IMG/VR virus record: IMGVR_UViG_3300046782_000740
Span: 1-62,775 of that record
DNA from: a virus
Lineage: Duplodnaviria; Caudoviricetes
DNA: 62,775 nt
Reading direction: 5' to 3' (one strand)
The notes under the pieces were generated by a model. That model searched no databases. It was given only the letters and a program-made list of their open reading frames with translations, and had not been told where the DNA came from. Numbering within the stretch: position 1 is the first letter of the stretch; every line of letters starts with the position of its first letter. Below, piece after piece: positions 4,008-62,775 of this stretch. Made by a program: the position numbers and the translations under genes.

Positions 4008-7000
4008 TCAGCCAGCAATCCCCGATGTGCCTTGAGAATACTGCTGTTTGACCTGGGGCGCCTGGGCCTGCGACCACTGACGGTTCTGCTGATCCCAGAA
4101 GTTCTGCGGCGTCTGGCCGAAGATGTCAGCGGTCATCTCCGCGCCCGCACGACCGACTGCTCCACCGGCTGCCGACTGCATGCGCGTGACGTTGGGGTCT
4201 AGCCCCTGCTGCAGGAAGTTGCCTGCCAGGTCGTTCGACTGCTGCGCCCACACGCCAGGCCCGAGCGCTTCCTGATCGGTACGGTAGGCAGCCTTCTGGA
4301 ACGGATCCCAACTCTGCCACTGCTGCGCCGTGATCGGCTGGCCTGTGCCGCCCGCTGGCGTGGTCGAGCCCTGCTGTGGAAGCTGCCCACCAGGCTGCGC
4401 AGCACCGGTGCTGCCCGCAGCGACGCTGCCCTGCGCGCCTCCACCAGGGTTGTAGCCAGCCGAGCCGAAGCCTGTGTAGTTGGGCGTGTTCTCGACGCCG
4501 TACTTGGTCGGGTCGTACGGCTGCAGGATCGAGTTGATCAGGTTCGACAGGTTCTGACCGCCGACGGCCTGACCCTGATAGCCGGGACCAGGGGTCATGC
4601 CCTGCAGCTTCTGCAGCCACGGGTTCTGCAGCGCGCTGCCCAGGATGTCCATCTTGTTCTTCTGCGTGGTCTGCCAGTCGGTGAACGCCTGCGAGCCCTC
4701 CTGCAGGTAGACCTTGTTGCCCTCGGACATCTCGGTCATCTTGATCTGGGTCGCGTCGCGCATCTGCTCGATGTCTTTGGTGGACTGGATCTGCTCGCGC
4801 TGAATCTTCTCGGACTCCTGATTGTGGCGCTCGTTCTCGGCGTTGATCTCCTGCTGGCGCTTGTCCTGATCCTGATGGATAGCCCAGTCCTGATCAATCT
4901 TCTTGAGCGTCTCGTTGTGCCGGTTGTCCTCGTTGGTCTTGTTCTGTTCTTCGATGGCCTTGTCGTTGCGGATCTTCTCGTCGATCTGCCTGTTCAGGGC
5001 GTCGATCTGGGCCTGCTGGCTGGGGGTCATGGCGACCGCACCAGCACCGGCGCCCATACCCCACTCGCCGCCCGCACCCATATCCGAGGCGTCTCGGGAG
5101 ATGGCCCTGTCGTCCCAGAGGTTCTGGTTGCCCGTGCCCATCTGCTGCTGATCTGTCGGCTGCTGCTGTTGCTGTGGCTGCTGACCCAGCGGCTGTTGCT
5201 GCGGCGGCGGCTGTTGACCTACCGGTTGCTGCTGCTGCCGCTTCACCGACTGCACGCTTGCGGTGATCGGCGACTGCTGGTTGCCGTTGCCCCAGAAGCT
5301 CTGCTTGTCCTTCTGCTCGTACAGATCCCAGCGCGAGTCAGCGTTGTCCTGCCCGCCGCCCATCGGGGGCTGCTGGGGAGGTGGTGCGCCAGGCTGCGGG
5401 GGCATCGGCGGGGAGCCGCCAGACGGAGAACTGGATCCGCCGGGCGGGCCCATCATCTGAGTCCCTGGCACAGGTGGGAGCGAGGCCATGGACCCAAGCG
5501 CGCCCGTCGGGTCGACAGGCTGACCTTGCGGGTCGCGCACCGCCCAGTGTAAGTGAGAGCCGGTGGTGTTGCCCGTCGAACCGACCTGGGTCGCCAGGTT
5601 CTGACCTTTGGCTACCTGCGCGCCGCGATACAACTCGGTGCTCTTGAGGTGCCCCAGCTTGTGCAGCGTGCCGTCGTTGCCGCGAATCATGACCACGAGG
5701 CCGAGCCCCTCTGGGTCGTCCTCGATGCTCTCGACCATGCCGTCGACGGGGGCGATGGTGTCGGTGCCCTCGGGCGCCTGCAGATCGACCCCACTGTGCA
5801 CGGGCTCGCCCTGGTTCATCTCCTGGCCGAAGCGATGCCCGATGCCCGCCACGTCCCCTGGCGGTACCGGTGGCGTCCAGCCAGGGGAGCCAGGGCCAGG
5901 TGTACCTCCTGGCCCTGGCATGGCACCAGCGTTCGGCGGAGAGCCAGGCGCAGGAGCCCCTGGAGAGGGTACCCCACCCGCCGTGGGTGGAGGGGCCCCA
6001 CCAGCGGGCGGAGCCCCGCCCATCTGACCGCGCAGCATTTCGATGTCAGGCGGGACGCCTGGCGGCAAGCCGCCTGGCGCACCGCCCCCAGCAGCAGGCG
6101 GCGGGGGGGAATCCGCGCCTGCACCAAAGAAGCTCAGGCCAGGCATCCCAGGCAGCTTGGGTTGAGGCACGGGCGGCGCGTGCCCCCCGCCCTGCGGCAG
6201 CGGCGTCACGGGCGGCGCGTGGCCCTGGCCCTGGCCCAGGCTCTGCTGCTTCTTCTGGAACTCGTCCCACCAACTGGGGTTTCCCGTAGGTGGCGTGACC
6301 TCGGGCGTGTGCCCGAGCGGCGGACCCTGCTCCACAGGGGTTGAGTTATTGCGCTCAGGTTCCCTGTGGACATCATCCGGCTCCGCGCGGATCCACTCTC
6401 TGGGATCCGTCGGCGGCAAGTCCCACGGGAGTTGCGGGTACTTCTGCGATTCTCCCTTGGGCGGATCAAAGGGAGTCTCAGGCTCGGTCCCGCCGTACCC
6501 CTGAGTGACGTCTCGCCAGTCACCTATATCCGGCTTCTGCGTAAAGGGGTCTGGCGGGAGCGGGGCTTCAGGCGGCGGCTTCTCCTGCTCACTCCACGCC
6601 GCTTCGTCCTCTGCACGGCTTGCCTCTTCGTCCTCATCCGCACCAGACGTGGGATTCCACGCCTCGCCTCGCATCGGCTCGTCTTTCGGCTGGTCGTGCT
6701 GGTCCTGCTGGTGCGGGTTTTCGAGCCCGCGCATCGCCTCGTCGTAGCGTCGCTGGACCTCGTCCTTGTGGGCCTGCTCGTCGCCAGGCTGCGCTGGGGG
6801 CTCGCTGCTGCCCCACGACTTCGGGTCGAGCGGATGGAAGTCGATACCGGCGCCCATCTTCGGGGTCCAGCCCTCGTGGCCCGCGCCGATGTCGATGGCC
6901 GTGCCGAGCCCGAGCGGGTCGCCGAGCTTCTCGAAGTCGGAGCCGAGCATGTTGGGCGAGTTGCTCTGCTCGGCGTCGGGCTGCTGCGAGGGCTGCAGAT

Positions 7001-19299: not shown

Positions 19300-19449
19300 C
19301 TATGCCAGGCGCCACGTGGGGTGGCGGTCGTATCGGGTACAGCCTGTAAAGGTTTTCCAGCGAATGCGCTCGTCCCACAGGTCGTACCACCACGTGCGGT
19401 CGATCCACACCGGCGGCTTCCAGCGGTGATACCTATGCCGCGCGCGCAC
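19300..19449 (-). CDS. Possible Trp/Arg-rich small protein (49 aa)
   Basis: Hand-translated open frame from a GTG that fills the gap. Confidence 0.3.
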   Translation of the reverse strand: MRARHRYHRWKPPVWIDRTWWYDLWDERIRWKTFTGCTRYDRHPTWRLA

Positions 19450-20110
19450 CCTCAAGCGCACCTCGGACGTCGTGCATGATGGCGTCCCACATCTCGGGGT
19501 AGGATGCAGCGAGCCGCCGTTGCACGAGTCCCAGGATGGCTTCTGCGACGGCCTGGCTCTCCCGCGAGATCGACTCGGACTTCATCGCCTCGGTGTACTT
19601 CTGCAACTGGTTGATGTAGCTCAAAAGCTGGGCGTTCAACTGTGAGTGCTCCGCCGGAGCGTAGCTGCGTCCCGAGGTCTCCATCTGCCTGAGCCTGACG
19701 TGCAACCCGGCTACACGCTCGCACAGTAGCTCGTAGTGCGGCCCGCCGTCGATGAACTGGCCCTGCAGCCTGGACAGGGTGTGCTGGTACTGCGCCTGGT
19801 ACTCGGGGCTGGACGGTAGCTCTAACGCCTTGCGACGCAGATTCTCTGACTGGCCCTGTGCCTGGTCGGCGATCTCCGACCATCGCCGGTACGCGTTCCT
19901 GATGTTGCGTCTGGCCTGCTCCAGCCCGTCTGGGTCAAGCTCGGGGTCGATGTCGTCGGCGATGCGCTGGCACTCGTCCCACTCGTCGAAGGCCCGCCGC
20001 AGGGCCAGCAGGGTCAGCTTGAGGCGCTCTTCTGGATCAAGCTCGGGCGCGTCCAGCACAGGTGGTCTGGTGGACGGCGCCTCGTCGTCGCGGACCAGCG
20101 TCGGCGGCAT
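19433..20110 (-). CDS. First late-operon gene; helical protein, terminase small subunit candidate
   Basis: 225 aa, alpha-helical character, at the head of the packaging operon. Function inferred from position only. Confidence 0.5.
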   Translation of the reverse strand: MPPTLVRDDEAPSTRPPVLDAPELDPEERLKLTLLALRRAFDEWDECQRIADDIDPELDPDGLEQARRNIRNAYRRWSEIADQAQGQSENLRRKALELPSSPEYQAQYQHTLSRLQGQFIDGGPHYELLCERVAGLHVRLRQMETSGRSYAPAEHSQLNAQLLSYINQLQKYTEAMKSESISRESQAVAEAILGLVQRRLAASYPEMWDAIMHDVRGALEGARAA

Positions 20111-20194
20111 GGTGCCAGCGTAGCACGAATTGTGCATTGGGGGGCGGCGTGTATACGATTGGGGGCACTAACCGGTGCGGGTGGTGGGACACCC

Positions 20195-20482
20195 ATGCAG
20201 GCTAGAGAACTGGAGTTGGACATGAGCGTACGCAACGGATCTCTTTCAGGCAGGTTAGGCACGGTGGAGACGTCGATCCTCGAACTGTTACTGGAAGATT
20301 ACAAACTGGCGGCTCGGCGAGATCACTGCTCGCGCCAGGACTTCGCGGCGGGCTGGCTGGCATTGCTGTCTCGACTGCGCACACGCGGCGTGGACAGGAG
20401 CCTGCTGCGCTGGGCCTGCCCCGAGCACCCGATGGGCGCCCTGGAGCAAAGCTCGCTGGAGCAAGAGATGACCGCCGCGTAA
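20195..20482 (+). CDS. Hypothetical protein (95 aa), paralog of the C-terminal domain of 20568..21446
   Basis: SRQDFAAGWLALL motif shared with the neighbour. Confidence 0.6.
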   Translation: MQARELELDMSVRNGSLSGRLGTVETSILELLLEDYKLAARRDHCSRQDFAAGWLALLSRLRTRGVDRSLLRWACPEHPMGALEQSSLEQEMTAA

Positions 20483-20502
20483 CTGGAATTAGTTCCAGAA
20501 AC

Positions 20503-20532
20503 TTGACAACCATTTCCGGCCCGTGGTAGGAT
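20503..20532 (+). promoter_or_regulatory. Sigma70/SigA-type promoter
   Basis: TTGACA-N18-TAGGAT, preceded by the palindrome CTGGAATTAGTTCCAG. Confidence 0.75.
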
Positions 20533-20567
20533 GATTCCTATCTACGGAAAAGGAGTGGTTGTCAGTT

Positions 20568-21446
20568 ATGGCACTACGCAGAAACAAAAGCACGGGTGGC
20601 TGGGAGCGTCAGCAGCCCGATGGCACATGGTTAGAGGTGGCGGGTCCGAGCGCCGCGCCGCCCGTCGGGGTCGCCGCTCCCGTAGCGGACTCGCTCGACG
20701 CGGCGCTGGACGAGGCATTCGACGCCGCGCTGGACGAGGCATTCGAGGCGTCCCAAAAACCCACCGAGCCCGTATCGGCGAATGGCTCCCAGGATTCGGC
20801 AGAGCCTGCGCCTGCTGCTTCGGTCAGTGAGCCGTCCCCCACGCTTGAGGCTGCCGTCGTCGAGGGCCAATTCACCGAGGTGCCCAGCGACGGAGCACAG
20901 GTTGTTGAGGGTGCTGCGGACGCGGGGCTCGACTTCGACATCCCTGGGCTGACGTCCTCAGACGGATCCAAAGGCACCAGGGGCGCCGCCGGTGTGCGCG
21001 ACCGCCTGATGGCCCGTCGGGGCACGGGAGGCCGCTCCACAGTTAGTGGTGCTCGCTCGGGTACGGGCGAGGGCACGGTGGTGGTAGCCGAGCGCGCCGC
21101 TCGGGCAAGCGGCCCCGCCGTCCGCGACGGCACCGAGGCCAGAGGACGCAGGGGGCGTTCTGGCGCACCCAGTCGGCCATCCACAGTTGGGTCGGGGACC
21201 GCTTCTGGTGGAGCGGCCAAGGCTGCCAGGTACACCGCGAAACCTGCGCCGGGTATCCTGAGTTCGTCTCCGAAGTGGGTACAGGATCTGTTCGAGGCGC
21301 ACTTCCGTTCGGACATGACGCTTCGGCTTCGACGGGAAAACAACCGGATGAAGATCAGTCGGCAGGACTATGCAATCGGGTGGCTGACGCTGCTGGCCAA
21401 GGTGAAGGAGGATCCGAGCATCCTGCGACTGAAGGACAAGGGGTAG
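20568..21446 (+). CDS. Hypothetical protein (292 aa): disordered acidic then basic region plus a conserved C-terminal helical domain
   Basis: AAGGAG RBS downstream of the promoter; SRQDYAIGWLTLL motif. Confidence 0.75.
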   Translation: MALRRNKSTGGWERQQPDGTWLEVAGPSAAPPVGVAAPVADSLDAALDEAFDAALDEAFEASQKPTEPVSANGSQDSAEPAPAASVSEPSPTLEAAVVEGQFTEVPSDGAQVVEGAADAGLDFDIPGLTSSDGSKGTRGAAGVRDRLMARRGTGGRSTVSGARSGTGEGTVVVAERAARASGPAVRDGTEARGRRGRSGAPSRPSTVGSGTASGGAAKAARYTAKPAPGILSSSPKWVQDLFEAHFRSDMTLRLRRENNRMKISRQDYAIGWLTLLAKVKEDPSILRLKDKG

Positions 21447-21573
21447 GGAGAGGGGGCTGACTTTACCTAGCCGGTAAAAGGGAAAAATTTTTTGGGGGCT
21501 CGCACCGTCCCCGAATAGCGCCCCAAGTGGTGCGTAGCACCACGGGGGGGCGCCTCCCCCCCTGCTTGCAGGG

Positions 21574-22598
21574 GGGGAGCTTCGCTGCGCGCGCGGCGGC
21601 GGCGGCGCTGGGCGGGGGTGCCCCCCGCTTAGCGCGTGCCTGCCGCTAGCTGCAGCGTACCCGCGCCGCGTGGCGCAGCGCATGGGGTGCAGGGCGTGCG
21701 CAGCACGCCCTCCAACACCCATGCCCGCTGCCCATGCGGCAGCGCCTGGCCGCGCGCTGGCGTGGCGGAAGCGGGGCATACGCCCGCTCACCGCCGCGCA
21801 GTGCGCGCTGCGCAAGAGCGCACCTCCAGGCCAGGGCTACGGCGCAGCCGTCGCCCACTGGCCAGGAGGCGAGCACGGTCGCTGCCCATCGGGCAGCGCA
21901 GGCCAGGCCGTGCGCCTTCGGCGCACGACCCGAGCCTGGCGCGGCGGACGCCGCTCCTGCCCCAGCGACAGCCAGCGGCACGCTGCGCTGCAGCGCTGCC
22001 GTCGGTCGGCGCGCCGCCGTGCGCGGCGTCTGCGTCGAGCGTGCTCGGCTCGCGCGCCCCGCGCCCATCGCCTCGTTGCTGGCAAGCGGCGCTTGCCTGC
22101 GTGCGGCAACGCCCCGAAGACTGGCCTGGGCGGCGAGCCGCCCGGGCCAGGCGAACAGCAGGGGAGATAGCCGAGCGCTGCTCGGCCCATCTTCTGCGCT
22201 CACGGGCACAGCGGCGGAGCGACTTCGTCGTTCCGCTTGGGCACGTGCTCGTGCGGCCCACATGCCGCGACCTCTGGCGTCGGACGTCTGCCCTGGCCGC
22301 GCGCTATCGTCGCGTCCGCGCGGGCTCGCGGCCCCTCGCCAGATCCACACGCGCGTCCCTCGCACAGTGGGACGCGGGCTTGCCCAGCGTCGCACCTCCC
22401 GCCTTTCGTTGGTTGCGCGGGTTCGGCGTAGCCGACCACGCGCGGTCGCGGCCGTCGCTGCCTCCGAGGTCTCAGGTTGTCGCCGGGGCGAACCTCTTGG
22501 GATGGCACCAGCAGACCACACGCTGGCATTTCAAATGTAACCCAGCGGTAAAGGGAGCAAGCTCCCCCGTCACCTGCCAAGGGGCGACACACAGTGAG
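21574..22598. repeat. Left (non-coding) arm of a giant imperfect inverted repeat, complementary to 22627-23829
   Basis: Its reverse complement aligns colinearly by hand with the promoter, RBS and four genes to the right, with many short deletions. Confidence 0.92.
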
Positions 22599-22648
22599 TC
22601 GGCAAGCCGACCGCCCGCAAGGGGCTCTCACTGTGACTCGCCTTATCC

Positions 22649-22677
22649 TTGACAGGAGCCGGCCACTGTGTTACTAT
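22649..22677 (+). promoter_or_regulatory. Sigma70/SigA-type promoter inside the fold-back stem
   Basis: TTGACA-N17-TACTAT, then AAGGAGG RBS and ATG at 22729. Confidence 0.85.
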
Positions 22678-22728
22678 ATTTGATGCCAGCGGTGGAGCCG
22701 CTGAGCCACACCAAGGAGGTTGCCCCTC

Positions 22729-23133
22729 ATGGCAACAACCCTCGATACCCTCGTCGGGAGCAGCGACTCCCCCCGCGACCGCTCGGTCGTGGTCGACTAC
22801 AGCGCCGAACTCCGCAAGCACACCAACGAGAAGAGCGGCGAGGTCAGCTACGCGCTGGTCATCTCCCCCGTCTTCTCCACTGGTGCGAAGGGCCGCAACG
22901 CGCTGTGGATCTGGCTCGATGGGCCCGCTTCGCTCCGCGCCTTCCGCGACTCGATGCAGCGCACGGCCAAGGGCATCGACGCTCTCGACGCCAAGATGGT
23001 CGCGGCCAAGGAGTGGGCCGCCCGACCAGTCGCGCCCAAAGCGGAAGCGGGCAAGCCCGCCTCCTCCGCCGCTGCGCCCGTTGAGGCTCCGAAGACGGTC
23101 CTCGACAACGCGCTCTCCGATCTCCCCTTCTGA
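22729..23133 (+). CDS. Putative ssDNA-binding protein or SSB C-terminal mimic (134 aa)
   Basis: Strong RBS; beta-rich N-domain plus helix (PC4/PUR-like by eye), Ala/Pro linker, C-terminal SDLPF like the bacterial SSB tip. Confidence 0.65.
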   Translation: MATTLDTLVGSSDSPRDRSVVVDYSAELRKHTNEKSGEVSYALVISPVFSTGAKGRNALWIWLDGPASLRAFRDSMQRTAKGIDALDAKMVAAKEWAARPVAPKAEAGKPASSAAAPVEAPKTVLDNALSDLPF

Positions 23134-23189
23134 TGTTCGCCTGGCTGGGGCGCGCGCTTGCGCCCCAGGCCGTTCTTCGGAGCATTGCC

Positions 23190-23546
23190 ATGCACACGCA
23201 GGAAATCGCCACTATTCGCCAGCAACTCGCGGACATCCGCGCGTGGCTCGCTGAGACCGAGCACAAGCTCGACCGCATGACGCTCGCGCCCAAGGCGGCG
23301 CCGCTGTCGACCGACGAGATCATCGCTGCAGCGTCCAGCGCGACCGCTGTCTACAAGTCGCTGGAGCAGGAACTCGGCGTCGACCGCCGCACCATCCTGG
23401 CTCGGGTCGAGCGCCTGGTCAAGGCGCACAACCTGGCCGAGCGCTTCCCCGAGTGGGGCACCGACCTCAAGCTCGCCAAGTACCTGGCCGAGCGGGTCGA
23501 CGGCGACCGCCGCCGCATCACCGTGGCTCTGGAGGCGCTCTCATGA
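23190..23546 (+). CDS. Coiled-coil plus HTH-like protein (118 aa)
   Basis: GGAG RBS; YKSLEQELGVDRRTILARVERL resembles an HTH. Confidence 0.7.
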   Translation: MHTQEIATIRQQLADIRAWLAETEHKLDRMTLAPKAAPLSTDEIIAAASSATAVYKSLEQELGVDRRTILARVERLVKAHNLAERFPEWGTDLKLAKYLAERVDGDRRRITVALEALS

Positions 23547-23674
23547 GCGCCTCGCGCCACCCCGCGCACAGGGGTGAGCGGCGCGCGCTTCGCGCCATCG
23601 ACCAGCGCAAGCGCGACCAGGCCGCTGCCCGCAAGGCAGCGCGCGCCCTGGTCAGTTGGAGGGCGGCTCGATGA
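23543..23674 (+). CDS. Small Arg/Ala-rich protein (43 aa)
   Basis: GGAGG RBS; ATGA coupling on both sides. Confidence 0.65.
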   Translation: MSASRHPAHRGERRALRAIDQRKRDQAAARKAARALVSWRAAR

Positions 23675-23841
23675 GCCGCCTTCCCCTCCTGCGCTGCGGC
23701 TACTGCGGGCGCATGATCTCGCAACAGCGCGGCAAGCCCGCGCCCCACAAGTGGGTGCAGGCTCCGCGACCAGGCGCTCGCGCCTCTGGCCCGTGGTGCG
23801 TCGGCGGCGCGCGGCAGCTACCGCTCCCCGGGCTCGGCTAA
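23671..23841 (+). CDS. Small Zn-finger-like protein (56 aa)
   Basis: GGAGG RBS; ATGA coupling; CGYC...H...C. Confidence 0.65.
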   Translation: MSRLPLLRCGYCGRMISQQRGKPAPHKWVQAPRPGARASGPWCVGGARQLPLPGLG

Positions 23842-24109
23842 CGCCGGGCCTTCGCTGCCCTACCGGGCCGCTGTCGCGGCCCTCGCCTCGCACTAGCCCG
23901 CCCCCCTGCGGGGCGGGCACCGGCTGGCTGCGCCAGCCGGAAGCACCTGGCACGGCGCGCGCTCCGCGCGCTGGGCCAGGCGCGCCGCTCCCCCTGCGGG
24001 GGGCGGGCTAGCTTGTCCGAGGCCGACGGCTGGGCCCTGCGGCTTGCGGAGTCTTGCTGCCGGCTAAAACAAGAGGCCCGAGCGCGCACAGGGGCACCAC
24101 CCCCTGGGT

Positions 24110-24410
24110 ACATTAGCAAACGCCCTGATTGTTACGTCAACCGGTGTTCTGTCTACTAGACATAACTATCTGGGGTTTTGCTAATAACACGCCGGATGTT
24201 GCATATACAGGCCCGGATAGCCTATATGCTATTCCGGCGTAAATAACCGGTAACAATCCCGGTCTTTATGGTGTGGATAAGAACAGGCCCGTTTTCAGGG
24301 TACCGGGCCTAACATCCACATTTGCCACGCCGTAAGCTCCCCGGTAACGGCTCTCGGAGCCGAAAAAGGGCCATTCCTTATCCACACCATAAGAACCCAG
24401 GCTGTGATCT
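24110..24410. other. AT-richer non-coding region with nested inverted repeats and two DnaA boxes; candidate replication or priming origin
   Basis: TGTGGATAA at 24272-24280 and TTATCCACA at 24378-24386 lie within a 16-bp perfect inverted repeat. Confidence 0.6.
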
Positions 24411-24475
24411 TGAGCCTTAGCCAATCGTGGATTAGATCCTTGCACAACCACAGACAACCTGCTAGGCTTCTGCCC

Positions 24476-25636
24476 ATGCCCGACGCATCCCCAGACTTGT
24501 TGGCTCTCTCCAAGCGAGTCGTCGACTCACCCACTGTGTCCCTGGAGACCGGTGGTCGCTATCTGCCTGTTCTCGATCTCCGTCCTGATAGCGATACAGC
24601 GGGGCTCATCACCGTAGCCGATGGTCGAGTGCTCTACATGGGCTATCTGTGGCCCACACCTCCACCTCCGCCCTACCCGACCTACATTCCCACCCTACCC
24701 AAGGTCGACACTGAGGTGCATGGGCTACTCAACCACTTCACCTTCTACGCCGAGGATCCATGGCGAGCACTCTCGGTCTACGCTATGCGGCTCAACACAG
24801 TGGAGCGCTTCGCCCGGGATGAGAACGACGACATGCTGCACGTTCGCATCGGTGTCGAGCAGTCGCTGTGGCGCAGGCTCTACCACCGCACGCTCAGGCA
24901 GAGCGTGATGAGTCACGTTGAGCACGATCTCGAAAGCAGCGACCACATGTGGTGGCGAGGGCCGTACCCCGACACGTACACCGGTCGTCCCAGAGTCAAG
25001 CTGCCCGGATACAACTATCTGCCCGTCTATCGCCTGCTGTGGCCTCTGGAGCGTCCGCATCTGCTCATTCCTGACGGGCGCCCGCGCAAGATCAGCTACC
25101 TGTGCAACGACAAGCACTCTGACGACCCTGCTCAGGACTTCCGCATGTGCGTCAACCCGCACCACTTCGAGGAGTCTGTGCCAAAAGCCTGGCGTCTCGA
25201 TCAGCACACCCGGCGAGGTGTGGCGAACGAGCTATTGCAGTTCAGGTTCCCGCTCTCGCAGATCAGCATCCGCAACTTCGCCGAAGATGGGAAGCCGCTG
25301 CTCGGCACGTGCCCTAACGGGCACGACGTCGGCGAAGAGGTGATCAGGAACTACAACGAAGGCGTCGGCTCGAACCGGTTCATCTGCTATCCCTGCAAGG
25401 TACAGGCGTACAAGATCCAGCGAGCTATGGGCCGCGAGACCGCCCGCACCCGCAATCGCTGGGAGCCCACGCTGGCGGAGCTTGATGAGATGCATGTCGG
25501 GCTGCGTCGCCAACTACCGGACCGATACACAGGGCCTGACAGTCTGGATGCAGACATAGAAGAACTCAAGCGCTTGATGGTGCTCGATAAGGCAGCCGAA
25601 AGCGGGGCTTCTAGTCCCGGCTATATAGACGAGTAG
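24476..25636 (+). CDS. Protein with a degenerate His-Me finger/HNH-like Zn loop and a CPNGH..CxxC zinc module (386 aa)
   Basis: G.P.VK...VYRLLW...ISYLC...CVNPHHF and TCPNGH...CYPC. Start uncertain, possibly leaderless. Confidence 0.65.
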   Translation: MPDASPDLLALSKRVVDSPTVSLETGGRYLPVLDLRPDSDTAGLITVADGRVLYMGYLWPTPPPPPYPTYIPTLPKVDTEVHGLLNHFTFYAEDPWRALSVYAMRLNTVERFARDENDDMLHVRIGVEQSLWRRLYHRTLRQSVMSHVEHDLESSDHMWWRGPYPDTYTGRPRVKLPGYNYLPVYRLLWPLERPHLLIPDGRPRKISYLCNDKHSDDPAQDFRMCVNPHHFEESVPKAWRLDQHTRRGVANELLQFRFPLSQISIRNFAEDGKPLLGTCPNGHDVGEEVIRNYNEGVGSNRFICYPCKVQAYKIQRAMGRETARTRNRWEPTLAELDEMHVGLRRQLPDRYTGPDSLDADIEELKRLMVLDKAAESGASSPGYIDE

Positions 25637-25650
25637 CTGTTGCAGGAGAC

Positions 25651-25680
25651 TTGACAATCTCCCCCACCCCATAGTACGAT
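25651..25680 (+). promoter_or_regulatory. Sigma70/SigA-type promoter
   Basis: TTGACA-N18-TACGAT. Confidence 0.8.
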
Positions 25681-25742
25681 GTCGGGGCATCGGTCCCCTG
25701 GGCTGGGATCGGTAGCTTGTTCCTTGAGGAGGACAGCACAGC

Positions 25743-26129
25743 ATGCCCGAGGATCCCCACTTCACCGAGGCTGAGAAGCAGGCCGTGGTCTCAGCCATGA
25801 AAGAGTTCGGCAACTGCCAGTGCAAGCAGGTAGTCGCCGACCCCGAGACTCACAGGCTCAAGACCATCGAGGTGTGCGACGGCCACCGGTTCCTCGCCGA
25901 GACCGACGGGCCGCAGTCGCTGGCTCGCCTGCATCGGCTGCTGTACGTGCGCCGCACCAGGCACCGCTGGATCGAGAACGAATACGTCGGTCGCTGCAAA
26001 GGCTGCGGCGATGCGGCTGCACAGTTTGGTGTGGGCAGCGCGAAGCAGTGCATCCGCTGCGAACTGAACGCGGCGCCAACGGCACCCGAGCCTGCCGCAC
26101 CGGTCGACTCGCCAGCGCTGCCGTGGTAA
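25743..26129 (+). CDS. Cys-rich hypothetical protein (128 aa)
   Basis: CCTTGAGGAGG RBS; CxC and CxxC pairs. Confidence 0.75.
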   Translation: MPEDPHFTEAEKQAVVSAMKEFGNCQCKQVVADPETHRLKTIEVCDGHRFLAETDGPQSLARLHRLLYVRRTRHRWIENEYVGRCKGCGDAAAQFGVGSAKQCIRCELNAAPTAPEPAAPVDSPALPW

Positions 26130-26133
26130 TGCC

Positions 26134-26850
26134 ATGGCTCGCTCTTCCCACCAGAAGTGCAAGGTCTGCCAGACGCTCATTCACAAACGCAACCGGTACG
26201 GCCTGTGCCACGTGCACTACCAGCAGCACGAGGACAGGCTGCGCCTCGAACGGGCCACGGCGAAGCTGCGGCGTGAGCGTCAGCAGAGCAATCCGATCAC
26301 GCAGATCATCGACGATCTGCGTACCGAGCGGCGCGAGGAGCAGATCATGCAGGAGATGTCAACCAACGGCACCGTCGCACTCCCGGATCTGCAACTGATG
26401 CGGCAGACACCGAGAAAGCTCAGCGACGAGCAGAAGCTGGAGATCGGCGCAGCCTACGAGGACGAGCGGGTCGCCGTGCTCGACATCCTGACCCGCTTCG
26501 AGATCACCGAGAACAGGCTGTACGACGTGCTGAAGGGGCTCGGCCTGCCGACCCGCAGCCAGAAGCGCAAGACCGCTGCCGCAGCACCGGTCATCGAATC
26601 CAACGTCGGTGTGCCGCCCGAGGTCGAGGTCGCCCTCGAACACATGCTGCGCCCCGTCGAGCCCATGGCACCGACACCCTTGCCACGGGCAAGGCAGGCC
26701 CCCGTAGCATGGCAGCAGGCCCAGCTATGGGAAGCCACGGTGACTGGCACCGTGGAGTTTCGCGGCGAGGAACTGGAGGACATCATCAGCCAGGTGAAGG
26801 CAGTCTTCCCCAACCTGCGCATCACTGCTATCAAGCAGGTAACCGGCTAA
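26134..26850 (+). CDS. Putative DNA-binding protein (Zn finger plus HTH-like, 238 aa)
   Basis: CKVC...CxxH; RKLSDEQKLEI..AY...VLDILTRFEITENRLYDVLK. Confidence 0.7.
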   Translation: MARSSHQKCKVCQTLIHKRNRYGLCHVHYQQHEDRLRLERATAKLRRERQQSNPITQIIDDLRTERREEQIMQEMSTNGTVALPDLQLMRQTPRKLSDEQKLEIGAAYEDERVAVLDILTRFEITENRLYDVLKGLGLPTRSQKRKTAAAAPVIESNVGVPPEVEVALEHMLRPVEPMAPTPLPRARQAPVAWQQAQLWEATVTGTVEFRGEELEDIISQVKAVFPNLRITAIKQVTG

Positions 26851-48091: not shown

Positions 48092-50065
48092 TCATCGCCG
48101 CTGCTCGGTGCAGTACATGGTGCCGTAGCTGATCGTGCTCACTCCTGCGTTCATGTTGAGAAAGACGGCAACGCGATGACTACCAGCCGGCATCGTGTAG
48201 TACACAACGCCCGACGCGGAGCAATAGTAGTTCGCGCCTGGGGTGTGGATGACGTGCGTTCCAACCCACAGTCCGCCGTCGATGCCGATGCCGAGATTGA
48301 TAATGGCCCCGGCTATGGAGTTGTAGAACGAGAGGCTCCACTCAATCCGCACGTTCAGTCCACCGGTGTACGTCCCGATGACCGCCACCGACGTCTCCAG
48401 CCAGCCGGCAGCGCCGGTTGACCAGCCGCCGCCAACGCCATTGAATGACCCTATGATCGCTTGCGCCGCGCCAGCCGCGAGCATCGGCGTGGTGACCGAG
48501 CCAGCAGGCAGAGATAGGGAGTTGGTGGCGGTTATCCCATAAGCCTGGAAGTTGCCCCAAGCAGTCAGGCCACTGGTCATCGTCACCGCACCGGTGTAGT
48601 CGATGATCACTGCGTCGGTGAGCGCGGCGTCGGTGACGACGCGCCGCGTGGCAATGTTCAGTGAACCCAAGCTGTTGGGTTGACCGTTCGCCAGGAAGCC
48701 TTTGATGCCTGCAAAGGCGATGTTGTTGCCAGCACCAAACAAAAGCACCCCGCCGTTGCCTGCGTTCTGGTTCGTGTCGTGCAGTGCGAGCAGCCCCCCG
48801 CCGACGGTCAGCCCCAGGCCGCTGGTGTTGTTGTAGCCAGCCCAGGTGGTGGCCCCCACGCCGTAAATCTCCGCCTGGGCATTCGTAGCAGAGCCGCCGC
48901 CGACCGTTAGCAGGGGCGTGACCATGCTGGTACCGGCGTATACCGTACGCGGCCTCTGGCTAGGCCAGCCGACATCCATCTGGTTGTCCTGCCCCGGTAC
49001 CCAGTGACCCGCGTTTCCCTCCACGCCCCACTTGGTCGCGGCGTTGACCTGAAGCCTGACCGCGCTACCCGACGTGATGAAGAACGTGTTGCTGCCAGCG
49101 TCCCAGATCATCGGGCGAGCCACACCAGTACCGTTGGCCTGGACTCCGATAGCTACCTGATTCGCCGCCCAGTTGATCCTGAAGCGCTCCCAGTTGTTGG
49201 CGTCGGAGTACGTGTTGTAGATGTACAGACTCTGTGCGTTCAGCCCGTTGCGCTGCTCCACCACGTTGCCAGCCGGAGCCAGCAGTGGGGTATCGACCAG
49301 TGGCGTGACCACGCTGGTGCCGGCGTAGATGGTGCGGGGTCTCGATGCTGCTGCGGCGCCGATGTCGTAGGTGTTGTCGGTGTTCCACATCAGCGTGTTG
49401 TTGAGCAGCGTCACGCCCGCGTTGTACAGACCGACGTTTCCGGCGCCTGACTGGTTGCTGATGTACACACCGTAGGCAATGCTGACCCCCGCAACGCCCT
49501 GGTTGTCCACGTATAACCCGTACATGCTCCCGACCCCGCTGCCGGATCCTAACGACGGTGCTCCCGCACGCAGCACATACCCACTGGTCAGGTTGGCCGC
49601 GACCGCTGTCGTATGCAGCCTGGCATAGACGCCGTAGAACGTGCCGAATGCAACAGCCGGAACCACAGGATCGACCTGAACCCCGTAAAAGAGGCTGCCG
49701 CTGAAGCTACTGCTGGGACTGCCGATGTACAGGGACGAAGAAGTCAGCCCCCCACTGCCAATACCCACGTTGCCAGTCAGGTTGCTGCCACCAGTCACGT
49801 ACAGCGTGTTGGTGACCCTTAGCTGTCGGCCCACATATACGTCGCGCGGCCTGCTCGCCGCCGTGGCGCCAATGTCGTAGGTGTTGTCAGGGCTGAACGT
49901 CAGGTTCTGCGTCAGCGGCAGCGTGAGCCCCCCGCCACCCCCCGACTGGTCTGCCCAGCCCATGGCGTAGTCGACGCTTGAGTTCTTGACCAGCACCTGA
50001 CCGGTCGTGCCGCCCATCGGAATGGGGTTCTTGAGGTCGAGGTTGGTGACAAGCTGGCGGGACAT
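48092..50065 (-). CDS. Tail fibre protein 2 (657 aa)
   Basis: GGTTGQVLVK; three D.TYDIG....RPR..Y repeats. Confidence 0.85.
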   Translation of the reverse strand: MSRQLVTNLDLKNPIPMGGTTGQVLVKNSSVDYAMGWADQSGGGGGLTLPLTQNLTFSPDNTYDIGATAASRPRDVYVGRQLRVTNTLYVTGGSNLTGNVGIGSGGLTSSSLYIGSPSSSFSGSLFYGVQVDPVVPAVAFGTFYGVYARLHTTAVAANLTSGYVLRAGAPSLGSGSGVGSMYGLYVDNQGVAGVSIAYGVYISNQSGAGNVGLYNAGVTLLNNTLMWNTDNTYDIGAAAASRPRTIYAGTSVVTPLVDTPLLAPAGNVVEQRNGLNAQSLYIYNTYSDANNWERFRINWAANQVAIGVQANGTGVARPMIWDAGSNTFFITSGSAVRLQVNAATKWGVEGNAGHWVPGQDNQMDVGWPSQRPRTVYAGTSMVTPLLTVGGGSATNAQAEIYGVGATTWAGYNNTSGLGLTVGGGLLALHDTNQNAGNGGVLLFGAGNNIAFAGIKGFLANGQPNSLGSLNIATRRVVTDAALTDAVIIDYTGAVTMTSGLTAWGNFQAYGITATNSLSLPAGSVTTPMLAAGAAQAIIGSFNGVGGGWSTGAAGWLETSVAVIGTYTGGLNVRIEWSLSFYNSIAGAIINLGIGIDGGLWVGTHVIHTPGANYYCSASGVVYYTMPAGSHRVAVFLNMNAGVSTISYGTMYCTEQRR

Positions 50066-50488: not shown

Positions 50489-52113
50489 ATGATCATCCAG
50501 CCGACGTAGCCAGAACTTGCAAATACCGTGATCGACTCCCCCTGCTGAAGCGTATACGGGTTGACCCAGCCCGTGGAGTAGATGCCGTTGCCATTGGTGA
50601 CATACACGTTGAACGCCGCGCCGGTAACGTTCTTGACGTAGTACACTCTCCCATACACGTAGTTCAGGTCTGGCAGGTAGACATAGGTGCCGGTGTTGAT
50701 GACCGCGAGATCGGTGGTGACGCCGAGCGTGACGTTGCCGCCAGTCTCCACGCGGTAGAGCATGTCGGCACGCTGGTGCGACTGGAGCAGTTCGTTGGGA
50801 GCGTAGGAGCCCGCGTAGAAACGCGGCCCGATGGTGTCGCCGAACGTGATCCCGATGCCGTAGGTGGTGTTGTAGATCCCACAGGCGCCGTTCATTCGCA
50901 TCCAGCCCAGGTGCTGCACCCCGTCGGCCATCGTGCAGCTAGCCCCGATTGCCGCGTTGTTGAGCGGGCCGTTGCAGTTGATCGTGGCTGCCGCTAGCGG
51001 GCCAGGCGTCACCGTCAGGTTGTTGGCCGCAACGTAGGACGAGCCGTAGTCCGAGAGTACCCCGCCGCCTGGGAACTTGATTGAGCCCGTGACCGTGATC
51101 CCCGTGGAGTCAACCATCAGTCGCTGCGCATGCGAAGCCGGGTTGGCACCTGCCGCAACGGTGTTGAAAGTCATTATCCCAGCGCCGATGACGATCAGCG
51201 ACGAGGCAGCCGACGTGTCGTAGCGCATCCAGTTGGTGCCGTCGAAGTAGGCATTGCTGGTCAGGTTCACGCCGACCTTGCCGCCTTCGAGGATGGCCGA
51301 CGTGGGCGACTCGATGACCAGATAGTTGGCAGCGCCAGGCGCGATGTGCAGGATCGGCGCGTTTACCCCAGCGGGACCAATGGCGAGCGTACCCGGCACC
51401 GTAGCGTTGTGGCTCAGGTACAGGTCGCGCGGCCTGCTCGCTCCGCTCGCGCCGATGTCGTATGCGCCGTCAGGGCTGAACGTCAGGGGCTGGCCCAACG
51501 GCAGCGTGATCCCCCCAGACTGTGCCGCCCAGGCCACGTTGTAGTCCGCAGTCGCGCTCTTCTGCAGCACCTGACCGACGGTGCCGCCTGCTGGCACGGC
51601 GCCTGGGCCGACGAACGACGTGGCCGCATAGACCGTGCGCGGCCTGCTGGCGCCAGCGATGCCGACGTCGTAGGTGTTGTCTGGCGAGAACAGCAGGGAG
51701 GCAGCTAGCGTCGTTGCACCCAGGCTGGTCTGTCCCGTCACAGCCAACGTACCGGCAACCGTCGCGTTGCGGCCCAGGAACAGGTCACGCGGTCTACTTG
51801 CAGCGCTGGCACCAATGTCGTAGGTCGCATCGGGGCTGAACGTCAGGGGCTGACCCAGCGGCAACGTCACCCCCAGGTTGAGGGTGGTCCACCCAACGGC
51901 ATAGTTGGTAGCGCTGGTCTTGGCCAGCACCTGGCTGGTCGCGCCGCCGGTAGGTACCGAGCCAGGCCCGCTGATAGAGCCTGTGACCTGTAGCGTGTTG
52001 GCGATAGTGACAGGCTGATCGGCCATCACCCCGGTCAACAGGTCGGCGTACTGTTTGATGTCAGCGTGGGCGATGAGGCCCTTGTTGATCAGTCGGCTGG
52101 TGTCGAGGGGCAT
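50485..52113 (-). CDS. Tail fibre protein 1 (542 aa, start MPLDTSR)
   Basis: Three FSPD.TYD(I/V)G....SRPR repeats, two GG...QVL.K motifs, C-terminal LP...GR.Y.VKN domain. Confidence 0.85.
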   Translation of the reverse strand: MPLDTSRLINKGLIAHADIKQYADLLTGVMADQPVTIANTLQVTGSISGPGSVPTGGATSQVLAKTSATNYAVGWTTLNLGVTLPLGQPLTFSPDATYDIGASAASRPRDLFLGRNATVAGTLAVTGQTSLGATTLAASLLFSPDNTYDVGIAGASRPRTVYAATSFVGPGAVPAGGTVGQVLQKSATADYNVAWAAQSGGITLPLGQPLTFSPDGAYDIGASGASRPRDLYLSHNATVPGTLAIGPAGVNAPILHIAPGAANYLVIESPTSAILEGGKVGVNLTSNAYFDGTNWMRYDTSAASSLIVIGAGIMTFNTVAAGANPASHAQRLMVDSTGITVTGSIKFPGGGVLSDYGSSYVAANNLTVTPGPLAAATINCNGPLNNAAIGASCTMADGVQHLGWMRMNGACGIYNTTYGIGITFGDTIGPRFYAGSYAPNELLQSHQRADMLYRVETGGNVTLGVTTDLAVINTGTYVYLPDLNYVYGRVYYVKNVTGAAFNVYVTNGNGIYSTGWVNPYTLQQGESITVFASSGYVGWMIM

Positions 52114-61600: not shown

Positions 61601-62775
61601 GTCCAGATTGCCGAAGCCCTGGAAACCCTCCAGGCTGTTGAGCGGGATCATGCCCTCGGGTACCTGCCGCCCGCGCGCCCTGACCACGTCGGCGCCGCTC
61701 AGGATGTCGCTGCCCTTGCTGCCTGGGCTGACCAGATCCATCAGGTTGCCGAGGAGTTCCGGTCGGTTGACCGACGCCTCCTGTGCCAGCTTGTCGACGA
61801 ACGCCTGGTTCGAGGCCGACTGGATGGCGCGCGTGTAGTAGTTGCCCAGCACCGTGGGCAGATCGTCCACGTACTGCGCGCCGTTGGCCTGGCCCTCGAT
61901 CATCGTGCGGTAGTCGCGGCTCTTGTTGTAGGTGCTGAACGGGTTGCGGTTGAACCGCCCGCCGCCACCGGGTCGCTTGCCTTCTTCGGCCCCCCTGGTG
62001 GTCGCCGCCGCCCACTCCTTGTCGAGCACGTGGGGCACGTACATCTTGGCCTGGCCCGCGCCTTCGAGGCCCAGCGGATCCTTGACGATGTCGTATTTGC
62101 GCGCCCACTCAGAGACGGCCTGCCAGCGGTCGAAGGCTGCCTGTGCTCCAGGCAGATCCTTTACCCGGTTCGGCAGTCGACCCAGCATCTCCATCTCTGC
62201 CGCCAGGTCGGCGTTGGCCAGGTCGCCGAAGACGCTGCGCCACTGATCGGCCAGTTGTTCGCCGGCGTTCTGCGACATCGCGTGGTTCCCGACCAGCGCC
62301 GCGTACGCATCCCTGGCGGGCTTGCTGAGCTTCGTGGCGGGGGCCAGCAGTTCCTGCCCCGCCTCGATGGCAGCTTTGCCGACGGTCTTGCTGATGCCCG
62401 TGGCGATGTACGGCGCGCCTATCCCCAGCGCGAAGCCGAGCATGCCTTTGGTGACGGCCTTGCCGTAGTGGTTCGGGTCGTTCTCGTCGCCGTATGCCAG
62501 TTCCGAGCCGCCCGCCAGCGCTCCCGTGGCCAGCCCGCCAGCGGTGCGCTTGACGATACCCGGTGCTCCAGCCGCTGCCTCGGCAGCAGAGGCGATGGCG
62601 TCGTGCAGGACGCCAGCCTTCTCGGCAGGGATCGACGCCACGCGCTTGGCCATGTCCATCGTGGATGCGGCGCTGGTTTTCGCCTGCGCCGCGTCGGCGG
62701 CAGCCTTGGCCGAGTCGCTCGCCCACCACGGCTGACGGGCGAAGAAGACGTCGTCGGGCATAGCCCTGCCTGCCA
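58619..62775 (-). CDS. C-terminal 1380+ aa of the giant ejection protein that starts at 4007
   Basis: The frame is continuous across the terminal repeat; helical, with hydrophobic segments and a YVPH motif like large internal virion proteins. Confidence 0.9.
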   Translation of the reverse strand, partial: AGRAMPDDVFFARQPWWASDSAKAAADAAQAKTSAASTMDMAKRVASIPAEKAGVLHDAIASAAEAAAGAPGIVKRTAGGLATGALAGGSELAYGDENDPNHYGKAVTKGMLGFALGIGAPYIATGISKTVGKAAIEAGQELLAPATKLSKPARDAYAALVGNHAMSQNAGEQLADQWRSVFGDLANADLAAEMEMLGRLPNRVKDLPGAQAAFDRWQAVSEWARKYDIVKDPLGLEGAGQAKMYVPHVLDKEWAAATTRGAEEGKRPGGGGRFNRNPFSTYNKSRDYRTMIEGQANGAQYVDDLPTVLGNYYTRAIQSASNQAFVDKLAQEASVNRPELLGNLMDLVSPGSKGSDILSGADVVRARGRQVPEGMIPLNSLEGFQGFGNLDDVHISPELATVLKNYAGSGDSIWDSALLRQSRNINSIFKHNTLSGSAFHLLNEVRQTFATQGAEAPVNLGKIMWQTTFPGGFRQFMTTNGPLARQAEKDGLTLNVVADRMDNLNLPQRWGLAAMNAGIGSVAGYQTALNSGETNEDALKTALATGIISGAAGSPVIKLDALSPERRSLVEHLSHAMWDRWIPALKLTTYEMYAPEFGGRDAASFVNSVFGGQNLLAIARSRSVQNAASMAALAPDWQEGFARLAGNALFNWGKDAPQGDMARKYWSNALVQHAVVLEGMNLAFGGQFSWQNDPDATLQVNAGRFYDMMGWDHTDPKTGQSYTPYWDILGPFRSMIEPVQETARAATAGAYTASGYDLNKLPLHDEVAGKWGQIPPPDPAGSVGRFISSRAGWLASTAGEVRANYDFAGRPIDQADDNEVQRAINRVWMITNHMQPTGTGEGLKDVAKGDPWPVALFSAATGMRTKREDETTKFFQWQDQFVNENKKNTQDWANLRADSRAQSQAIDQKIEAIQSGAKKNDDGSDMTPRDRNNQIAALAAQRPTQKKDLQGLIDKRNLPDGPEKDELQRQLKEMLSYDIVSGGNDPVDLTGRTDIDPADLFNKAWNKDPSAVDRLTRTSPKPIDFGQGMGASFAESGLGDTLRDVIHNPPGSTSSKELQGLRAQWTEDYAKTWGIDPAVMQDYVKANLYDLPNKTPPPLTGVTSSQLDDIVQGWQDKGLSQNNQPITDPGTAARLRQEYVMATAQELGLDPKDLAQRIKLRNLPMADTTPAGLSRSRALDVLSDSRYYPYQNADGSPKDGPAEWQEYDKKLSAARNRFEFVQKDGKGFYMKDGKVDPELTGLFEDKQRATAYRYRSVFNSPNKDDYYRWFGDGANLTDKQWEQYQAGTLDMWHDNPDPREAKNRNTAMRVWAGLTPEERWTYGIPEAGGGKPITYSALGPTGKMESRSSSLAGYINYINTYKNNHYVLGDIDPNPQQAVSSAGG
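62568..62775. repeat. Terminal direct repeat (copy 2)
   Basis: Matches 1-208 with one mismatch. Confidence 0.97.

Follow-up and report, generated by a model that had tools for sequence, protein, structure and literature searches.

The viral record IMGVR_UViG_3300046782_000740 from IMG/VR (62,775 nucleotides (nt); this whole stretch is referred to here as the window) contains a fold-back in which a non-coding left arm is a shortened reverse complement of a right arm that carries a promoter-like site and four small genes (Table 1). We find that the mismatches between the two arms are strongly lopsided, in the direction that places wobble pairs on the minus strand, the template of the four genes. 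An earlier note on this DNA had taken such an asymmetry to identify the minus strand as the one that folds. That proposal stands in part: the bias has the same sign in all six long fold-backs that we compared and in a seventh, short one, and it appears in every mismatch class, but it is not specific to wobbles and a drive on base composition may be its source. The asymmetry does point towards the minus strand, and so partly supports the proposal, but it does not identify the folding strand.

The fold-back itself is well defined. When the reverse complement of 21632-22548 is aligned with 22663-23743 by Smith-Waterman, there are 791 matches, 108 mismatches and 200 columns with gaps. With cheaper gaps the arms extend to 21560-22598 and 22627-23848 (892 matches, 97 mismatches) at a score of 822, versus at most 172 for shuffled left arms, in agreement with the extent of 21574-23829 first described for the element. 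In a self-comparison this is the single large inverted repeat between 20137 and 25743. Two further public runs yield Logan contigs that span the apex without a single difference (X2, 21746-24100; X3, 21923-23951), and therefore the repeat and its insertions and deletions are not an assembly artefact, an explanation that we exclude. Since these contigs are identical to the record, they yielded no variants from which covariation could be tested. The left arm of the window differs from the right arm by 107 deletion events and 11 insertion events, and the deletions are mostly very short (1 nt, 62; 2 nt, 26; 3 nt, 12; 4 nt, 8). All left-arm open reading frames (ORFs) have a flat profile across codon positions (GC1 = GC2 = GC3 ~0.75). 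A coding paralogue in the left arm is ruled out by this flat profile and by deletion lengths that are mostly not multiples of three.

To describe mismatches we give the base in the reverse complement of the left arm followed by the base in the right arm. The window has 17 G,A and 13 T,C transitions, which are G.U wobbles on the minus strand, against three A,G and four C,T transitions, which are wobbles on the plus strand. This formal count of 30:7 bears out the transition bias of the earlier note, whose hand count ("15-20 against a few") had the direction right and the number too low; all 13 mismatches quoted there are found in the alignments. Other alignment settings give 29:7 and 25:6, and the former is clearly asymmetric in a binomial test (p 0.0003). 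Transversions, which had not been considered before, are equally lopsided (G,T:T,G = 24:2; G,C:C,G = 14:5).

The same asymmetry is found in relatives. The long fold-backs number six, the window and five divergent relatives; where seven loci are counted, the seventh is a short fold-back in record G002 (locus L030). Minus-strand wobbles outnumber plus-strand wobbles in all six long loci (29:7, 13:7, 23:6, 11:2, 19:6 and 13:6) and in the short hairpin (6:0, or 6:1 with the second alignment setting). Pooled under the second setting, the ratio is 134:51 (p 8.7e-10), and it is 56:17 for wobble mismatches with at least two matches on both sides. Moreover, all six complementary pairs of classes lean in one direction: G,A 89 versus C,T 37; T,C 45 versus A,G 14; G,T 71 versus C,A 33; G,C 59 versus C,G 17; A,C 40 versus T,G 19; and T,A 34 versus A,T 15. 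Together these are 338 versus 135 of 473 mismatches, where the base frequencies of the right arm predict ratios of only ~1.15-1.2. Read on the minus strand, G.U exceeds A.C, G.A exceeds C.U, G.G exceeds C.C and U.U exceeds A.A. In nearest-neighbour studies of both RNA and DNA, the commoner member of each of these pairs is the more stable mismatch. Of the bases on the minus strand of the left arm, G is substituted least often (50 of the 473 mismatches are at right-arm G sites) and is also deleted least often. Conversely, a change from A to G in the left arm, which keeps a plus-strand wobble, is rarer than the transversion from A to C (37 versus 71), which argues against selection on plus-strand pairing.

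How these loci are related bears on whether the arms are maintained. Using the terminase as a query, we found 24 related viral loci and examined four large records further. The gene order is kept in these four: a minus-strand homologue of the gene at 19433-20137 is followed by two genes on the plus strand and, after a gap of 1.5-2.1 kb, by genes 1 and 2, except that G003 is without gene 2. G001 has ordinary plus-strand genes where the left arm would be and no comparable palindrome. G002 has ordinary plus-strand genes upstream of its short hairpin (4600-4840; arms of ~110 nt, 241 nt folded), which covers only the promoter, the 5' untranslated region (5'UTR) and the Shine-Dalgarno site; its minus strand is 27 kcal/mol more stable (shuffles, 6 +/- 5). 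G004 has a large inverted repeat of its own, with a gene 2 product just 39 % identical to that of the window. A metagenome scan with an alignment of gene 2 proteins then gave four further fold-backs (L038, L039, L040 and L042). Scans of viral contigs with single-protein patterns of gene 1, gene 2 or the gene at 26134-26850 found no relatives, a pattern scan with the gene at 19433-20137 found five loci and no additional fold-back among them, and cheap-gap self-alignments of other loci scored 68-178, which is background.

Each left arm matches its own right arm (scores of 354-822) far better than the right arms of other loci (70-238; shuffled baseline 80-172), and the proteins of these loci diverge by 0.6-2 substitutions per site. 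Therefore, the arms either co-evolve within each lineage or arose separately in each. The gene 1 and gene 2 trees (0 and 1 well-supported inner branches, respectively) lack the resolution to tell a single gain from repeated ones. Across the six long loci the insertions and deletions are one-sided, with 421 deletion events versus 35 insertion events in the left arm. The bases missing from the left arm are rich in A/T (54 % versus 32 % in the right arm), and G, in the sense of the right arm, is lost least often; because the missing bases are A/T-rich, the left arm is the more GC-rich (0.71-0.84 versus 0.66-0.70). Aligned identity is 86-93 % in all six lineages, with 16-22 % of columns gapped on the left-arm side. 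In each long locus perfect runs reach at most 10-14 nt, shorter than randomly placed breaks would give (P <= 0.0002 in four loci, ~0.05 in two). In all six left arms the mirrored -10 box and the mirrored start codon of gene 1 are destroyed, although the loss of the start codon is by itself not significant given that ~30 % of positions are altered anyway. Taken together, the fold-back is conserved and, judging from these sequence comparisons, appears selected rather than accidental.

To explain the lopsided mismatch spectrum we propose, tentatively and at somewhat less than an even chance, that selection acts on the fold of the minus (template) strand, perhaps as single-stranded DNA in the manner of the Frpo promoters of plasmids. 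Selection that keeps the template strand of the operon able to fold would allow left-arm changes to persist when they leave G.U (or G.T), G.A, G.G or U.U on the minus strand and would purge their complements A.C, C.U, C.C and A.A. The left arm, a shadow of the operon, has lost about a fifth of its bases, mainly A/T, and its minus strand is enriched in G. For the folding molecule we favor single-stranded DNA, with a leftward RNA as a less favored form of the same proposal. The minus strand could be exposed, for example, as a lagging-strand template beside the hairpin that carries the DnaA boxes (below), and the shadow arm might then take the place of the missing partner strand and so restore the promoter and operon as duplex, in the way that Frpo/ssi hairpins act on transferred plasmid strands. 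Single-stranded DNA biology would fit here because the product of gene 1 ends in a tip like that of single-stranded-DNA-binding proteins (SSB), the DnaA boxes are 0.4 kb away and the hairpin of G002 is the size of an Frpo. The causal role of selection on pairing, the identity of the folding molecule and the role in transcription are all things that we infer from these patterns. An extended version, which we consider improbable, is a self-templated single-strand expression cassette: the template strand of the first early operon, with its SSB-like gene in first place, would fold onto a shortened, non-coding partner derived from the operon, and host RNA polymerase could transcribe the operon from single-stranded DNA made at the adjacent origin, or during entry or attack by host nucleases.

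Several of our results weigh against selection on the minus-strand fold. The asymmetry is not wobble-specific, and a marginal excess of G on the minus strand of the left arm explains most of it: under quasi-independence the expected counts are 77.9 for G,A (observed 89), 39.1 for T,C (45) and 31.8 for C,T (37), and the fitted marginals show that at mismatches the minus strand of the left arm is G-rich and the right arm G-poor. Among left-arm bases that have no partner, too, the minus strand has more G than C (97:70 of 285), which hints at a composition drive, mutational or otherwise. The folding energies of the two strands, a comparison that had been suggested as a check, are ambiguous. By minimum free energy (MFE) of the whole hairpin the minus strand is the more stable in 7/7 loci (by 2.6-8.5 % in the six long ones and 22.6 % in G002), but shuffled sequences have an equal gap (L039, -42 versus -49 +/- 17 for shuffles; L038, -74 versus -54 +/- 4.5) and the antisense strand of ordinary plus-strand phage genes is 6-8 % more stable. 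We therefore discarded the whole-hairpin MFE gap as strand evidence, as it is confounded by composition. In the central non-coding 261 nt of each locus, compared with composition-matched shuffles, the seven z values are -0.2, -0.7, -1.0, +0.3, -3.3, -1.4 and -5.2 with RNA parameters (minus strand favored in 2/7) and -2.7, +0.2, +0.1, -3.7, -6.1, -0.2 and -3.4 with DNA parameters (4/7). No locus is clearly reversed, and there is no preference beyond composition in 5/7 loci for RNA and 3/7 for DNA. Loop motifs (UUCG, GNRA, CUUG and GNA triloops) were dropped as a strand marker since by eye they are mixed between strands: GNA triloops closed by C-G are read from the minus strand at the apex but from the plus strand in the hairpin of the flank, and the apex GCAA loops belong to the plus strand. 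The promoter-like sites also point the other way. The three strong ones are of one type (TTGACA, 17-18 nt, TA..AT; a TG extension in two of them) and all face rightward (P1, P2 and 25651-25680); of the four sites scored in total, versus 0.6 expected from shuffles, the only leftward one is weak, at 24155. Lastly, we know of no free single-stranded DNA stage in tailed double-stranded DNA (dsDNA) phages, and the locus lies in the middle of the contig.

A plus-strand RNA is the alternative that these promoter-like sites suggest. Read-through of the left arm from P1 would produce a built-in antisense RNA that, as a giant hairpin in cis or in trans on transcripts from P2, could shut off or process the operon. 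P1 and P2 are both strong and rightward, no terminator-like site was scored on the plus strand between P1 and the left arm, and the apex GCAA loops and the GNA triloops of the flank hairpin read on this strand. The ceiling of 10-14 nt on perfect runs and the bulges on one arm might mark an antisense RNA that evades a double-stranded RNA nuclease, and the mismatch bias would come not from tolerance of wobbles but from C and A being preferred in the RNA of the left arm, for instance because they leave the interruptions unpaired or the antisense unstructured. The earlier note had called a silencing antisense RNA unlikely. The mismatches agree, in that plus-strand G.U are the rarest transitions (51 versus 134) and left-arm A-to-G changes are rarer than A-to-C; the uniformly rightward direction of the strong promoter-like sites does not. 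Tolerance of G.U on the transcribed strand is thus not seen for a plus-strand RNA and would hold for a minus-strand one. Furthermore, P1 and P2 are of one promoter type, so that antisense and target would be produced together, and in L042 an apparent hairpin followed by a T-rich stretch past the upstream gene (by eye) means that read-through is not assured. On balance we regard a plus-strand RNA as unlikely.

The composition results raise the further possibility that the fold-back has no strand-specific function. It would have arisen by a strand-switching fold-back duplication seeded at the apex palindrome, strand-biased mutation would make the bias, counterselection of long perfect palindromes and of a mirrored promoter would lead to deletions, and quasi-palindrome template switching would keep the arms similar. 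A graded series at one site is consistent with this (no repeat in G001, arms of ~110 nt in G002, arms of 0.6-1.2 kb in the six long fold-backs), as are the destruction of the mirrored -10 box and start codon, the short perfect runs, the excess of G among unaligned left-arm bases and the whole-hairpin energy gap that composition controls reproduce. Neutral decay in bacteria, however, usually runs towards A/T, and here the left arm is higher in GC than the right. A-to-C-type transversions exceed transitions in one direction, which is an unusual mutation spectrum, and the six deeply diverged lineages all have arms within the same narrow range of identity and of left-arm gaps. Among the 8 loci with this region there is neither a young fold-back with long perfect runs nor an old, unrecognizable one, and in genes 1-2 of the window the fast-evolving third codon positions carry the fewest mismatches (17/76). 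These points make an origin of this kind without strand-specific function rather unlikely, if not strongly so. We give still less weight to a role as duplex DNA, for instance as an insulator rich in GC, as a platform for protein binding or, driven by supercoiling, as a cruciform at the apex next to the origin, in which neither strand would be "the" folder. Both strands can form the three-way junction at the apex and the flank hairpins, which are short and perfect palindromes, and a short way downstream are the conserved GCTTGTCCGA-like motif and the DnaA boxes, yet such a role predicts strand-symmetric mismatch classes instead of the observed 338:135, and kilobase arms bulged every few bases would not be expected to extrude from a duplex. 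A duplex role therefore seems to us quite improbable.

Selection on the minus-strand fold invites comparison with known systems. The Frpo and ssi single-stranded-DNA promoters of the leading regions of conjugative plasmids were reportedly described by Masai and Arai in 1997. According to two accounts of these elements, the transferred template strand folds and rebuilds a promoter, often before an ssb gene, and SSB stimulates it (PMC12672017, PMC11541004). The resemblance lies in an imperfect hairpin of the template strand of downstream genes that holds both -35 and -10 boxes (in the phage, a fold and a strand that are proposed here from mismatches), in a first cargo gene that is often that for SSB in plasmids and that has an SSB-like tip in the phage, and in the G002 form (arms ~110 nt, 241 nt), which is Frpo-sized. 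By the same accounts Frpo elements are intergenic and 50-350 nt long, whereas the six long phage forms span 1.4-2.3 kb and cover coding sequence, the partner arm reaching 0.6-1.2 kb over it; and Frpo DNA enters cells single-stranded, while the phage element lies in the middle of the genome of a tailed dsDNA phage. In all loci the promoter lies within the stem, next to the apex. As judged by eye, six loci keep the -35 box of P2 and five keep the -10 box (L030 is without the -10), and an identical pair of hexamers was scored in L042. The boxes on the partner arm are TTGGCA and TACATT in the window and TACATT in L038, at a spacing of 27-35 nt unless an inserted mini-hairpin folds out, and the partner -10 is GC-rich in L039, L040 and L042. 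Membership of the Frpo family is not established, as the long forms exceed the size range of these elements; the likeness is one of features.

Other known systems share some of these features. Quasi-palindrome template switching or fold-back duplication, as in the model of Ripley, also copies one arm from the other and makes arms co-evolve, but it perfects palindromes at a scale of tens of bases, whereas here there are ~90-110 one-sided deletions per arm and runs of at most 14 nt over kilobases. The antisense RNAs that control plasmid copy number are likewise complementary to an mRNA over a long stretch and frequently bulged, which lets them escape RNase III. However, they are ~60-100 nt and come from the opposite strand of their target, while the phage partner is a separate inverted copy of 1 kb and the wobble statistics disfavor plus-strand pairing. 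The terminal hairpins of poxviruses and parvoviruses have a branched tip and extrahelical bases mostly on one arm, but they are genome termini of ~0.1-0.2 kb; the phage fold-back is internal, has conserved flanks and is bridged by independent contigs. Keyword searches of one paper library turned up no account of a phage with a non-coding inverted copy the length of an operon, which is not proof of absence.

If the minus strand does fold, this would be, to our knowledge, the first sign of a tailed dsDNA phage that relies on a kilobase, strand-specific single-stranded structure, which would serve to express or protect its first genes. Strand-specific single-stranded promoters operate on transferred plasmid strands and also in filamentous and N4-type phages, with much smaller hairpins. 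The improbable single-strand cassette, if true, would bring the Frpo principle to phages and enlarge it from a hairpin at the promoter to one that takes in the entire operon. Whatever the mechanism, a non-coding arm of 1 kb keeps pace with a coding arm that evolves fast, and does so in no fewer than six lineages that are deeply diverged, with one-sided bulges and at most 14 perfect pairs in a row. The mismatch classes, the ceiling on run length and the one-sided insertions and deletions are falsifiable handles that can also be used to recognize further examples in metagenomes.

Table 1. Positions in the window of the fold-back, its genes and neighboring elements.
Feature	Position	Strand	Description
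Promoter-like site P1	20503..20532	+	Upstream; transcripts would enter the left arm unless terminated earlier
Left-flank module	21483..21577		A5T6 tract, GGTGC-GTA-GCACC hairpin (21527-21543), then G7 / C8 / G7 runs
Left arm	21560..22598		Non-coding, GC 0.75-0.77; by alignment, a shortened reverse-complement "shadow" of the promoter and four-gene operon
Apex	22590..22635		9-bp outer stem around two mini-hairpins, a three-way junction
Right arm	22627..23848	+	Promoter, 5'UTR hairpin, Shine-Dalgarno site, genes 1-4
Promoter-like site P2	22649..22677	+	Sigma-70-type TTGACA, 17 nt, TACTAT with TG extension; upstream of the four genes
Gene 1	22729..23133	+	134 aa; three strands and a long helix, Pro/Ala-rich linker, acidic D-x-P-F/A tip
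Gene 2	23133..23546	+	137 aa; conserved protein of unknown function
Gene 3	23543..23674	+	43 aa, basic; "LVSW" motif common to L032, L040 and L042
Gene 4	23671..23841	+	56 aa; Cys-x-x-Cys miniprotein, relative in L031
Neighboring hairpin	24261..24397		36-nt arms, 83 % complementary, in an A/T-richer island

The four genes of the right arm are translationally coupled and show clear periodicity at third codon positions (GC3 0.87-0.88). We propose gene 1 as a candidate for a single-stranded-DNA-binding protein, judging from the features of its sequence. Its AlphaFold2 model (pLDDT 73) has three strands and one long helix. A Pro/Ala-rich linker and a D-x-P-F/A end are present in 8/8 homologues, with D131 and P133 invariant. 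This linker and tip resemble the tails of bacterial SSB, which have a disordered linker and an acidic C-terminal tip ending in Pro-Phe. Its best fold matches are weak (PUR-alpha, COMM and PC4-like chains; Z <= 4.9, Foldseek E >= 0.05), and it has no match in Pfam. For gene 2, the sole Pfam match, PF22953, falls under the curated cut-off (18.8 bits versus 27).

The hairpin ~0.4 kb to the right of the operon holds the only two exact copies of TTATCCACA (the DnaA box) in the window, one per arm and in inverted orientation, and may be a replication-origin element, for which its sequence makes it a candidate. A GCTTGTCCGA-like motif follows a G-run at 24011-24020 and lies just past the small-gene operon in 4/4 loci that cover this region (the window, L032, L040 and L042). 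At the apex, a comparison by sequence finds the same architecture with different stem sequences in L032, L038, L039, L040 and L030; for L042 the likeness covers the mini-hairpins. The left-flank hairpin (GGTGC-GNA-GCACC type) recurs with its G/C runs in L032, L038, L040 and L042, and the G-run, C-run and G-run blocks that follow it allow two alternative pairings.

The record is a complete or near-complete virus (CheckV 98 %) and encodes, by PHROGs, terminase, tail-fibre, major head, DNA polymerase, helicase, primase and exonuclease proteins. Given its terminase, head and tail genes, it is therefore a tailed dsDNA phage, for which packaging of dsDNA is implied. The public runs that contain the sequence are soil and rhizosphere metagenomes, and no RNA run with this stretch was found among them. 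The fold-back is mid-contig, after the leftward structural genes (ending at 20137) and before the rightward replication genes (starting at 25743), with conserved syntenic genes on either side. Among the 19 large ORFs annotated with PHROGs we found no reverse transcriptase and no phage RNA polymerase. A blastn search of 20100-25800 against a phage collection gave zero matches, and 19800-25900 had no match to the RNA families of Rfam at E <= 1.

Other repeats were seen elsewhere in the record. Its ends, 1-208 and 62568-62775, repeat each other over 208 nt at 99.5 % identity, which is either a terminal repeat or the overlap of a circular assembly; IMG/VR classes the record as linear. A tandem duplication of 24 nt (20695-20742; perfect register, 96 % identical) lies within the ORF at 20559-21446. 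One segment of ~90-130 nt is present in three copies (49841-49933, 51388-51516 and 51748-51874; 77-83 % identical), and these sit in adjacent large minus-strand ORFs that match one PHROG of unknown function. Lastly, 19433-20137, the first of the leftward structural genes, shares the 6 nt at its start (20132-20137) with the start of 20132-20482, the first of the rightward genes, and therefore the promoter of each must be within the coding sequence of the other.

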